In this document: positions 4,454 to 10,935 of the stretch, piece after piece
How positions within the stretch are numbered: the stretch's first letter is position 1
How the letters are laid out: every line of letters begins with the position of its first letter
IMG/VR virus record: IMGVR_UViG_3300022187_000017
Coordinates: 41,778-105,777 of that record
Length of the DNA stretch: 64,000 nt
Strand: one strand, 5' to 3'
Source of the DNA: a virus
Program-made: the position numbers and the translations under genes
The notes under the pieces: generated by a model
Database searches by the model: none
What the model saw: the letters and a program-made list of their open reading frames with translations, nothing else
Told to the model about the DNA's origin: nothing

Positions 4454-4896
4454 TTGATCATGTCTAGATGATCCTTAGATCTTCCATAGCTGGCCTTAGC
4501 ATCGATAACTCCCTGCACTGACTGAACCTTACCTTTTACTCTGCCATCCTCACTCACATACTCTAATAATCCCTTTGGCAAACTAGCATGATCCTCCAGC
4601 AATATGTCCAGACAATACCCATTCTTCTTTAACTTCAGGGATCTCTTCCCTGCAGATCCAAGACAGTCTCCTTCTGATACTGATCTAAGGAGAGATAAGA
4701 TATGTCTCTGCTCTTTAGTTGGCTTATAGATGATAATATCTAGATCATCTGGAGTTTTGTCCAGATTGAGTCCATGAAGGTGTAGTGCATGTGTCCCTCC
4801 TATTACTAAATTACTAAATCTATTCAGCTGTGATAAAATTGTGTAGAATTGAATGATTGTCTCATTCATCTTCTCTGTTACGCTTAATTTTTTCAT
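4426..4896 (-). CDS. Nucleotidyltransferase (Pol-beta superfamily)-like protein
   Basis: VIGGTHAL...PDDLDIII...LDIL...K..YGRSKDHLD matches the GG/DxD signature of minimal NTases. Confidence 0.65.
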   Translation of the reverse strand: MKKLSVTEKMNETIIQFYTILSQLNRFSNLVIGGTHALHLHGLNLDKTPDDLDIIIYKPTKEQRHILSLLRSVSEGDCLGSAGKRSLKLKKNGYCLDILLEDHASLPKGLLEYVSEDGRVKGKVQSVQGVIDAKASYGRSKDHLDMIKWKNLNFNT

Positions 4897-7542: not shown

Positions 7543-8331
7543 TTACATCACCCAATCCTCTACTATATCTGGCTCTACTCCTGCCTCCAGAGCTTCCTGT
7601 ACTGACTTGATAGATTCTCCATTCTTGAATGTATGGCCTATCTGCTCCTCTACAGCTACATACTCAGCTAATAACTCTGGGTTCTCTTTACCTGCTATTA
7701 GGAGTGCATTGAATGGACTGAAGATACAGAAACAACATGACAGCCTTGGCATCCCCAGATCATATGCTTTATGATACTCCAGATTGTTACCCTTGATCAC
7801 ATCCCAGACCTTCTTAGAGCTCCAGTCATGTACAGGTAGATAATCTATCACTGTCCTCTTCTTAGTGGTTAACTGCTTATTTAATGACTCCACCTTTCTC
7901 TTAGATCTGGCTGGAGACTCCTCTGCTCTGAATCCAAATACATACAGGATCTTACAAACTCCCATCTCTTTAGTTAGCTTAGTTACTACTCTAGCACCCG
8001 GGCCACGCTTGAAATCACTGGTACACCATCTCTGTTGGCTACTTGGCCACTTACCTCTCCTCACTGCATACTCCAGAAGATCCTCCTCATAGCCATCCTT
8101 ATCTCTTCTCTTGCTGTAATAGGTCTTTAGTCCCCAGTGATCAGATTGTCTCTTAACTAGCTCCTTTGTGCCTTTCCACTCAACCTTACCTAGATCCTGA
8201 TGTGACACTACTAACTGATCCAGAGGATAGCACTGTTCCAATGCCATCTGAACCATTTGCCAGACAGACACTAGAGAGTCCTTCCCTCCAGATGAATTGA
8301 TGATCACTAGATCATAGTCAGCTAAGATCAT
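7543..8331 (-). CDS. PAPS reductase/DndC-like PP-loop protein
   Basis: NSSGGKDS PP-loop, RWCTSDFK, GFRAEESPARSK, YDLGMPRLSCCFC (Fe-S cysteine pattern). Confidence 0.85.
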   Translation of the reverse strand: MILADYDLVIINSSGGKDSLVSVWQMVQMALEQCYPLDQLVVSHQDLGKVEWKGTKELVKRQSDHWGLKTYYSKRRDKDGYEEDLLEYAVRRGKWPSSQQRWCTSDFKRGPGARVVTKLTKEMGVCKILYVFGFRAEESPARSKRKVESLNKQLTTKKRTVIDYLPVHDWSSKKVWDVIKGNNLEYHKAYDLGMPRLSCCFCIFSPFNALLIAGKENPELLAEYVAVEEQIGHTFKNGESIKSVQEALEAGVEPDIVEDWVM

Positions 8332-9082: not shown

Positions 9083-9979
9083 CTAATATTTACTCATTAC
9101 ACAATGGCCATGGGACATCTTGTAGTCCACCAGCTCCTGCTCTGTCATATGCCCAAACTTCTCCAGAGCTGTTTTAAGGACTTCTGGGAGAGGATCTTTC
9201 TTACCCCACACACCAAGATTCTTTTCTTCCATGTGCTCATTAGCCTTCATCTTATTGGCCTCCAGCTTCACCCAGAGGTCATATGATGCTCTGTCATATC
9301 TATACAAGTACAATAACTCCTGCAGGCTCATGAATGGACATAAGATGCAATTGGAAGGATAAGGTACCTTCTCACCTACACTGGTGATGTAATCCTGACA
9401 TGCTTGCCGATCCATACCCTCTTCAATCAATGGATACTGCTTATTGATGCAAGTATTAAACCATTTCATCCCACTGGAGCCATTCTCAGAGGCTCTCTTC
9501 TCTTCTCCCTTAGCAATGCCTATAAGTACATTGATCTTCCCGTACTTCTCAGCAAACTCATAGAATGCTGCTTTCCTACCATACTTCTCAGTGTTGTAGT
9601 TGTGATGTACATACAGCTCTAGGAACTTGTAGATAGGCCTGATCTTCAGGTTATCTGTACAAGTCTTAGGGAATGCCTTAGATCCAACTGTATTTTTGCT
9701 CTGGTAGAATTTGATCAATCCACCCTTCCAGCTATTGGATGCCCATAGATCAGGCTCCAGATGAAAGAATGGGATCTTATGCTCATCACATAGCTCTTCT
9801 ACTCTCTCCAGATACTTATCAGTATGATCATGCTCATTTCTGGTATTAGCCATAACCACAATAAGATCACCCTTCACATATTTGGCCTTGAATACTGGAT
9901 CATGTAAACACTTAAAGAGGATGGCAGTTGAATCCTGCCCTCCTCCATAAGATAACATTGTAAGCTCTTTCTTCTCCAT
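9083..9979 (-). CDS. Second PAPS reductase-like (adenine nucleotide alpha-hydrolase) PP-loop protein
   Basis: LSYGGGQDST PP-loop, TCTDNLKIRPI, IGIAKGEEKRA, YPLIE..MDRQAC, PSNCILCPF. Confidence 0.8.
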   Translation of the reverse strand: MEKKELTMLSYGGGQDSTAILFKCLHDPVFKAKYVKGDLIVVMANTRNEHDHTDKYLERVEELCDEHKIPFFHLEPDLWASNSWKGGLIKFYQSKNTVGSKAFPKTCTDNLKIRPIYKFLELYVHHNYNTEKYGRKAAFYEFAEKYGKINVLIGIAKGEEKRASENGSSGMKWFNTCINKQYPLIEEGMDRQACQDYITSVGEKVPYPSNCILCPFMSLQELLYLYRYDRASYDLWVKLEANKMKANEHMEEKNLGVWGKKDPLPEVLKTALEKFGHMTEQELVDYKMSHGHCVMSKY

Positions 9980-10363: not shown

Positions 10364-10516
10364 GACTTTTTTTACTTAAAACATCAAATAATTTATAACT
10401 CACTGATTACCAGTGAGAAAAATATGCATATTTTTTATGCATATCACCCATATATGTATAAAAAAGTGCATAAATGTATACATATATGCTAACAATGCAT
10501 GATCTTTCATACCAAT

Positions 10517-10556
10517 AAAAAAGGGAGGATTTACGATCCATTACTGGATTCCTCCC
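10517..10556 (-). terminator. Intrinsic terminator closing the tmRNA coding piece
   Basis: Minus strand GGGAGGA...TCCTCCC followed by TTTTTT. Confidence 0.75.
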
Positions 10557-10795
10557 ATACGTCTTATGCAGCCATTCTAAATGGTGCAGTAGATTGTTGT
10601 ATAACTTCTGGAGTTATAATTAAAATAGCCTCCTTTATCGCTTCTTTACGCTGTCAAAACCAGTCTACCCCATGTTCCCAGATATAGTGCTGGGATCACT
10701 TCCACTTTTTAAACAACCTCCTTCTGGAGATAGTGGAGTAGATGGGAGTCGAACCCATGTCCAAACATAATCCACAATAATATCAACGAACTACT
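10517..10795 (-). ncRNA. ssrA: Circularly permuted (two-piece) tmRNA gene
   Basis: Minus strand. The acceptor piece comes first: TTATGTT-TGGAC-ATGGG-TTCGACT-CCCAT-CTACTCC-A (10770-10734). An intervening segment with two hairpins follows, then the coding piece GGGGTAG-ACTGGTTTTGAC-AGCGTAA starting at 10671. The acceptor stem GGGGTAG/CTACTCC has G3-U70, and helix 2a AGCGTAA/TTATGTT pairs across the pieces. The tag frame ...PEVIQQSTAPFRMAA* ends at 10564. Confidence 0.85.
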
Positions 10796-10799
10796 TTGC

Positions 10800-10812
10800 T
10801 GTAAAGATAGTA
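10800..10812 (-). promoter_or_regulatory. Putative promoter (-7 element) for the tmRNA
   Basis: Minus strand TACTATCTTTAC (TAtcTTTA), followed by AGCAAAGTAGTTCGTTGATATTATTG. Confidence 0.5.
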
Positions 10813-10872: not shown

Positions 10873-10935
10873 TTATACCCGATAAGGTATAATATATGAT
10901 ACATTAACCTATATTATACCCGATAAGGTATAATA
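10873..10935. repeat. Two copies of a 22-bp palindromic element
   Basis: TTATACCCGATAAGGTATAATA at 10873-10894 and 10914-10935. Each copy is TTATACC-N6-GGTATAA. Confidence 0.85.

Follow-up and report, generated by a model that had tools for sequence, protein, structure and literature searches.

Two-piece transfer-messenger RNAs (tmRNAs) are a textbook case of gene permutation and have been described for three bacterial lineages and for organelles. In the permuted genes of Alphaproteobacteria, a betaproteobacterial group, and Cyanobacteria (Rfam family RF04321, Caulobacter type, which merges RF01849-RF01851), the 3′ tRNA-like half comes first and is followed by an intervening segment that is removed. 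The two resulting RNAs are joined by the acceptor stem and helix 2, have fewer pseudoknots than one-piece tmRNAs, and encode a tag that ends in Ala-Ala. Marine myophages (OM43 phage Melnitz, pelagiphages, and cyanophages) likewise carry permuted ssrA genes in transcription units of their own, alphaproteobacterial or cyanobacterial in type and in some cases with a glutamine riboswitch, and a survey counted 53 two-piece forms among 133 unique phage tmRNAs (PMC9004378). The tmRNA database distinguishes alpha, beta, and cyanobacterial permuted types, and holds without comment 48 permuted calls in Bacteroidota assemblies (PMC11915505). The one-piece tmRNA of Bacteroidota (RF00023) is encoded by genes of about 395 nt that score 130-150 bits on the one-piece model and specify a nine-residue tag such as GENNYALAA or GEENYALAA. 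Here we describe a gene on the minus strand of a 64-kb stretch (the window, to which all coordinates refer) of the 105,777-bp IMG/VR virus record IMGVR_UViG_3300022187_000017. An earlier note on this DNA had taken the gene for a phage-encoded, circularly permuted, two-piece tmRNA lacking the pseudoknots pk2-pk4, an identity now backed by a match to RF04321 and by covariation in relatives. We consider it likely that the gene gives rise to a functional two-piece tmRNA that serves the phage through host factors, in a family most likely derived from a separate permutation of the one-piece Bacteroidota tmRNA.

Architecture of the permuted gene

As judged from its sequence, the window gene is a genuine circularly permuted tmRNA (ssrA) gene and more than a chance arrangement, given its RF04321 score, the failure of shuffled sequence to reproduce its architecture, and the fact that more than 30 independent sequences repeat that architecture and show compensatory changes in it. 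The earlier note had proposed a search with Rfam tmRNA models; the merged permuted model (tmRNA_permuted) gave 56.1 bits (gathering score 47; E 3e-8 for the 64-kb window) in a match that runs end to end (10779-10564; model positions 1-213). The one-piece model RF00023 matches the 3′ half only, at 24-29 bits, below its cut-off of 47, and a pattern describing the permuted architecture occurs once in the window and in 0 of 100 shuffles. The gene lacks the features that mark the alpha, beta, and cyanobacterial lineages (an encoded CCA, a UGGuUUCGAC-type D-loop analogue, and pseudoknots after the tag), as well as the collinear 5′ half, pseudoknots, and 3′ half of one-piece tmRNA. Unlike the bacterial permuted tmRNAs, the family to which it belongs does not encode CCA, has no conserved pseudoknot, and places a terminator directly after the tag; its D-loop analogue is CUGGUUUUGAC in the window gene, in contrast to UGGuUUCGAC in the RF04321 consensus. 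The family also differs in being carried by phages, with only one copy found in bacterial genome assemblies.

The whole transcription unit, from promoter box to the T-run of the terminator, spans 10517-10809 and has homologous units in relatives. The consensus TAnnTTTG is the -7 box of Bacteroidota promoters, and the box in the window, TATCTTTA (10802-10809), has one mismatch to it, with a predicted transcript start near 10796; a sigma-70-like promoter match (10805-10777) is also present. At the homologous place most relatives have TATATTTG, TAAATTTG, TATCTTTG, or similar boxes fitting TAnnTTTG. The predicted acceptor piece (putative ends 10734 and 10797; about 64 nt before CCA addition) begins with a leader and carries the 3′ strands of helix 2, namely TTATTGT of helix 2b (10774-10780, opposite 10641-10635) and TTATGTT of helix 2a (10764-10770, opposite 10652-10646). 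These are followed by GGAC (10762-10759), the T arm ATGGG / TTCGACT / CCCAT (10742-10758) with its GTTCGAnTC-type loop, and the acceptor 3′ strand CTACTCC (10735-10741), in which U10737 is the U of the G3-U70 pair. The strand and its discriminator (CTACTCC-A, 10741-10734) face GGGGTAG (10671-10665) across the split in a 7-bp acceptor stem; in relatives, 11 different closing triplets occur here, all of them complementary across the split. A10734 is followed by CTA rather than CCA, which is not encoded.

The 62 nt that follow (10672-10733) are predicted to be removed and fold at -16.9 kcal/mol (z -2.2) into two hairpins (10731-10716 and 10695-10676), much as the earlier note had described for a segment of about 60 nt. 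The second hairpin, with the loop ACTATAT, recurs with an altered stem in loci L167 and L173. Two IMG/VR contigs, L131 and L139, carry near-identical permuted tmRNAs with the tag GKQINVNFAASRKLAA in both and intervening segments of 41 nt and about 215 nt, respectively; the segment therefore appears to tolerate insertions. A 12-nt direct repeat with one mismatch links the first intervening hairpin (TATCTCCAGAAG, 10721-10732) to the resume region (TAACTCCAGAAG, 10605-10616); about 0.4 such pairs are expected by chance in the stretch, and the repeat may mean nothing.

The coding piece, of about 155 nt, opens with the acceptor 5′ strand GGGGTAG (10665-10671), whose G10671 is the predicted RNase P product end, followed by the D-loop analogue ACTGGTTTTGAC (10653-10664), identical to that of one-piece Bacteroidota tmRNAs, and by the 5′ strands of helix 2a (AGCGTAA, 10646-10652) and helix 2b (GCGATAA, 10635-10641). 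A hairpin TATAAC / GTTATA (10600-10618), homologous to one in a subfamily of relatives (56% of cells paired), holds the putative resume codon CCA (10611-10609) in its loop. The tag reading frame (10564-10611) encodes PEVIQQSTAPFRMAA, ending in FRMAA, and closes with the stop TAA (10566-10564); within it lies a further hairpin, CCATT-TAG-AATGG (10572-10584), which covaries in relatives (e.g., CGCT/AGCG and CCAGT/ACTGG). The piece ends directly after the tag in an intrinsic terminator (10517-10556), where the earlier note had also placed one, made up of a compound hairpin (10556-10523; -17.1 kcal/mol, z -3.2) and T6 (10522-10517); a simple terminator scan missed this hairpin because of its long loop. 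The mature RNA would thus total about 220 nt. All the elements listed in the earlier note (GGAC, the T arm, both acceptor strands, discriminator A10734, helix 2a, and the FRMAA-stop frame) were found on the minus strand where it had put them.

Conservation across a phage-borne family

Relatives were collected in several ways. The 5′ motif GGGGnnnACTGGTTTTGACAGCG was found in 12 other IMG/VR contigs, of which four scored above the RF04321 cut-off and eight carried one-piece tmRNAs, four of these with typical Bacteroidota tags (e.g., GENNYALAA) and four with a long atypical tag. Four IMG/VR contigs (L128, L130, L136, and L137) carry a one-piece Bacteroidota-type tmRNA of 395 nt that is weak on Rfam (70-77 bits) and has an unusually long tag frame; that of L137 adjoins an array of more than 20 tRNA genes, and therefore appears to be phage-encoded. 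A junction-spanning pattern matched 78 metagenome loci, which a filter for GGAC-T arm and a complementary acceptor reduced to 32 distinct permuted genes, the window's included; one gene from the genome collection brought these to 33, and longer-spacer viral copies and isolates to 38. Contigs of the family encode terminase, portal, head protease, and phage-type polymerase, and many of the copies lie within tRNA gene arrays. In a collection with one genome per species (about 185,000 bacterial and archaeal species), the pattern matched 31 loci, nearly all of them one-piece and labelled Bacteroidota; the sole permuted copy there lies on a 5.8-kb contig of an Aequorivita metagenome-assembled genome (MAG). 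The genes next to the tmRNA showed no conservation among carriers.

Among isolate phages, blastn with the window locus returned nothing at E 1e-5, and matches came from relatives used as queries, only at relaxed E. The named carriers are Chryseobacterium phage MA9V-3 (PV245944), Maribacter phage Panino (PP540027), and the crAss-like phage cr10_1 (MT774382). Their genes share the permuted, CCA-less architecture and have tags of the same family (GNVIDINKYVAKLEVAA, GKVMNVSFAPTVRQFA, and GNNFVTDYTQLAVA); all three are marked as permuted by ARAGORN and score 50-65 bits on RF04321. They differ from the window gene in slightly varying D-loop analogues and in their neighbouring genes. The earlier note had allowed that similar phage genes might already be catalogued, and GenBank phage records do annotate a tmRNA, which ARAGORN flags as permuted; the records of MA9V-3, Panino, and several crAss-like phages label it only "transfer-messenger RNA SsrA." In the Panino paper, the tmRNA gene was treated as a possible attachment-site copy (PMC11590407). 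The literature searched contained no description of a permuted tmRNA lineage in Bacteroidota phages, and papers mention such genes only in passing. Comparison of these sequences indicates that the permuted gene is not unique to the window phage and is a member of a recognisable, if undescribed, two-piece variant. A stretch of the crAss-like isolate Cellulophaga phage phi14:2 (KC821624, ~4472-4549; L253) matches the T arm and spacer of family member L167; it is annotated as a hypothetical protein, ARAGORN reports a 470-nt one-piece tmRNA, and Rfam gives nothing above cut-off.

Covariation was measured on an alignment of 33 sequences for a specified structure, tested against shuffles and against partners slid out of place. 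In this alignment 82% of cells were paired, as against 69% in shuffles, and the covariation score was 0.411, compared with 0.155 in shuffles (reached by 0 of 500) and 0.06-0.09 for the slid controls. The acceptor stem and T arm were always paired, with several compensatory types; for the T arm, 3 of 5 pairs covaried and pairing was 100% (n = 33 sequences), pairing having been a selection criterion. Helix 2a, which had not been selected for, showed compensatory changes at 5 of 7 pairs, and the hairpin inside the tag frame covaried. The earlier note had suggested looking for covariation in related phages, and the acceptor stem, T arm, and helix 2 do covary across the split. It had further staked its reading on conservation of the acceptor and helix 2a pairings and of an Ala-Ala-stop frame in homologues: the pairings covary, and the last codon is GCN in 30 of the 33 sequences.

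Helices 2b and 2c were out of register in the MAFFT alignment and were tested instead by comparing the duplex energies of each segment with its own and with mismatched partners. Own partners were favoured for helix 2a (0/3000 permutations) and for the middle segments, both against the near leader, the zone of helix 2b (1/3000, cognate versus non-cognate), and against the far leader (0/3000); 15 other region pairs were not significant when the number of tests was allowed for. Helix 2 is accordingly a three-part helix (2a, 2b, and 2c) that joins the two pieces, and its segments pair in the right order only. This test replaced RNAalifold, which, with helices 2b and 2c out of register in the re-joined alignment, had identified no more than the acceptor stem, the T arm, and the tag hairpin. 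No support was obtained for a duplex between the 3′ tail of the coding piece and the acceptor-piece leader (536/5000).

The same comparisons bear on pseudoknots. The window contains a candidate pk1-like element, in which GGAG (10633-10630) would pair with CTCC (10613-10610) of the resume-hairpin loop; the complement is absent from relatives, and the pairing is not conserved. A conserved GGAGAAC after helix 2b pairs with a conserved GTTC in the leader of the acceptor piece as helix 2c, and for this reason would not be part of a pseudoknot. After the tag there is no space for pk2-pk4. As far as comparative evidence goes, the family appears to be free of pseudoknots. A review reports for E. coli that tmRNA can do without pk2-pk4 and that a hairpin can take the place of pk1 (PMC3968760).

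Aligned from the stop codon, the tags form a conserved 15-residue family with the approximate consensus GKVIxLxxAPLRAxA; examples are GKVIQMNTQVLRAVA, VKVIQMNTTPLRMAV, GKVINLFNAPLRAAA, and DNNNVFSIAPLRATA, alongside the tag of the window. The GCN codons at the end use all four third bases, and over the last eight codons entropy is 1.47 at third positions, compared with 1.12 and 1.14 at first and second positions. The codon pattern indicates that the tag is conserved at the peptide level. ARAGORN independently gives exactly the predicted tag for 14 relatives, starting from the homologous resume position; on this ground the resume position of the window is placed at CCA 10611-10609, and in the window's own subfamily a hairpin loop holds the resume codon.

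Origin and mode of action

The one-piece genes offer the closest comparison for the origin of the family. All 23 tmRNA genes from organism-named records of the genome collection are one-piece (22 labelled Bacteroidota and one on a short Legionellales-labelled MAG contig), which agrees with the earlier note's statement that Bacteroidota tmRNAs are one-piece, the single permuted copy being that on the 5.8-kb MAG contig. All 23 start with GGGGnnnACTGGTTTTGACAGC, the strand that leads to their T arm is of the GTTTGGAC or GTATGGAC type and in most cases TTGTTTGGAC, and 22 of them do not encode CCA. The permuted genes resemble them in the 5′ GGGGnnnACTGGTTTTGACAGC, in the 3′ TTGTTTGGAC strand leading to the T arm, in the D-loop analogue, in the GACAGC motif at the start of helix 2a, and in the absence of CCA; the sequence ahead of the resume codon is also similar (GGC in the one-piece genes). 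The phage form differs from the one-piece Bacteroidota tmRNA in being split, in its smaller mature RNA, and in a 15-residue tag of a different family. Among the other permuted tmRNAs of IMG/VR phages, most have CCA in the gene and a loop of the UGGUUUCGAC type. A tree built from the tRNA-like domain shows a 99/96 split, with every family member and each of the 23 named one-piece genes on one side and most CCA-encoding permuted forms on the other. Because the family agrees in its tRNA-like domain, its missing CCA, the context of its resume codon, and its type of promoter with one-piece Bacteroidota tmRNAs, and not with the CCA-encoding permuted tmRNAs of other phages, we regard it as probably an independent, phage-borne permutation of a tmRNA of the one-piece Bacteroidota type. 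The earlier note's wording, "independently permuted," is favoured by these common features and keeps its character as inference. Further permuted tmRNA genes without an encoded CCA and with other D-loop analogues (e.g., CTTGGAATTGAC and CTTGGTTTCGAC) occur in IMG/VR loci L007, L015, L048, L023/L025/L116, L090, and L107, and the diversity of two-piece tmRNAs in phages seems to go far beyond that of the three named bacterial types.

A different origin is that the family descends from an already permuted tmRNA of another lineage, its tRNA-like domain having converged on the Bacteroidota form for the sake of host SmpB, alanyl-tRNA synthetase, and RNase P. Alphaproteobacterial-type phage tmRNAs are common, many other permuted tmRNAs occur in IMG/VR phage contigs, some of them also without CCA, and the tree is short and unresolved inside a large clade that includes seven other permuted sequences. 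Nevertheless, the family shares with the Bacteroidota form more than sites of protein contact: helix 2a starts with GACAGC, the TTGTTTGGAC strand is present, CCA is absent, promoters are of the Bacteroidota type, and the stretch ahead of the resume codon is similar. None of these traits was part of the metagenome search pattern. We consider this descent rather unlikely.

We infer processing, charging, use of SmpB, tagging, and a benefit to the phage as follows. A single transcript would begin near 10796, driven by the gene's own promoter of Bacteroidota type, and would stop at the gene's own terminator (10517). Host RNase P would cut ahead of G10671, the 3′ end would be trimmed after A10734 and receive CCA from the host CCA-adding enzyme, and the 62-nt intervening segment would be discarded. 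The 7-bp acceptor stem and the three-part helix 2 would then keep the coding piece joined to the acceptor piece, which would measure about 64 nt plus CCA. Neither an SmpB gene nor a tRNA gene was found in the phage record, and the tmRNA must therefore use host factors: host alanyl-tRNA synthetase would charge the G3-U70 acceptor, and host SmpB and EF-Tu would bring the tmRNA to stalled ribosomes. Translation would resume on the short frame, probably at CCA 10611-10609, adding Ala and PEVIQQSTAPFRMAA and ending at TAA, in a course of action that would need no pseudoknot. The likely benefit to the phage is that ribosomes would be kept free during the breakdown of host mRNA, with the phage's own tag in use.

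Several observations weigh against a functional tmRNA of this origin. ARAGORN, the other search proposed in the earlier note, called no gene in the window; its call is a detection rule and not a biological criterion, and among 37 family genes it called 21, as permuted, and missed 16, with 5 wrong tags and 1 truncated tag among the 21. The putative resume codon of the window is CCA (Pro), as against GGC, GGT, GAC, GTA, or GCA in relatives. Helix 2c is weak in the window copy by duplex prediction, and when the two window pieces are folded together, the minimum-energy structure favours a duplex that is not conserved and breaks up the T arm. The long leader-to-resume-region duplex of this minimum-energy dimer was set aside, not being conserved in relatives. 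Pairing of the acceptor and T arm was partly imposed by the filters, and G3-U70 was fixed by the search pattern. The tree that gave the 99/96 split comprises 70 columns, from sequences partly chosen by their D-loop motif.

Two other readings concern the present state of the gene. The RNA could be a decoy, its two-piece tRNA-like domain soaking up host SmpB, and perhaps alanyl-tRNA synthetase or EF-Tu, to shut down host trans-translation, with the tag frame unused. This would suit the absence of SmpB from the phage record and the atypical resume codon in the window, and a phage tmRNA consisting of the tRNA-like domain only (mycobacteriophage DS6A) and a similar tmRNA-inhibiting molecule have been described (PMC4131195; PMC11915505). 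A pure decoy, however, would have no need of a coding piece, its hairpins, or an in-frame stop codon, and in 33 divergent genes the tag frame stays open, its peptide is conserved, and the codon for the final Ala varies synonymously. Because the tag is conserved as a peptide, real tagging is favoured over a pure SmpB decoy, which we consider unlikely. The gene could also be an inert relic, left when a phage once integrated in host ssrA was excised imprecisely, with a 3′ fragment stranded upstream of the 5′ part, and now decaying. tmRNA genes are common integration sites, and circularization of a mis-excised prophage would leave the 3′ fragment immediately ahead of the 5′ end of ssrA; the lack of an ARAGORN call in the window and the non-syntenic neighbouring genes of carriers would fit as well. 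Against decay stand four helices kept by compensatory changes across more than 30 divergent copies, the presence in each copy of a promoter of its own or of a tRNA array setting, together with a terminator, and the constraint on the tag at the peptide level. A relic is thus very improbable, and the mis-excision route may explain the origin of the family, not its present state.

Genomic setting and significance

The virus record is rated 98% complete, has its genes on one strand, and has a G+C content of about 37%. PHROGs annotation identifies a terminase, a DnaE-type polymerase, a DnaB helicase, ribonucleotide reductase, and SbcC (SbcCD genes). Among isolates, the closest in terminase and polymerase (30-37% identity) are phages of Bacteroides, Chryseobacterium, Cellulophaga, and Tenacibaculum, and by these similarities the host is most likely a member of the Bacteroidota. 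The terminase had no close relative in IMG/VR. Synteny was also sought through the GP88-like gene upstream of the tmRNA; its 7 IMG/VR homologues are neither syntenic nor accompanied by a tmRNA. Between this gene and the tmRNA promoter a 22-nt near-palindrome (plus strand, TTATACCCGATAAGGTATAATA) occurs twice at a spacing of 41 nt (10873-10894 and 10914-10935); the two copies could be operator sites or hairpin terminators. On the other side, between the tmRNA terminator and the next gene (10302), positions 10431-10489 form an A+T-rich cluster in which palindromes based on ATGCATA and TATACAT overlap. Two genes with PAPS-reductase / PP-loop ATPase signatures (7543-8331 and 9083-9979) follow immediately downstream of the tmRNA unit and may belong to a nucleotide or DNA-modification module.

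A broader reading, which we offer tentatively and with somewhat less than even confidence, is that a fourth lineage of two-piece tmRNA, of independent origin and free of pseudoknots, is carried by phages of Bacteroidota, crAss-like gut phages among them. At about 220 nt, its members may rank among the smallest tag-encoding tmRNAs; they may stem from capture of ssrA at an attachment site, and a 15-residue tag unlike the GENNYALAA of the host would give rescued proteins a fate chosen by the phage. A dedicated covariance model would improve phage annotation, because ARAGORN misses 16 of 37 family genes and the margins of RF04321 over its cut-off are small (only 3-23 bits among the few family copies scored). 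If a further phage lineage did arise from the one-piece Bacteroidota tmRNA, then permutation of this gene recurs, and a tmRNA can function without any pseudoknot. Since crAss-like and other abundant Bacteroidota phages carry the gene, it may matter for how these phages handle the translation of their hosts.

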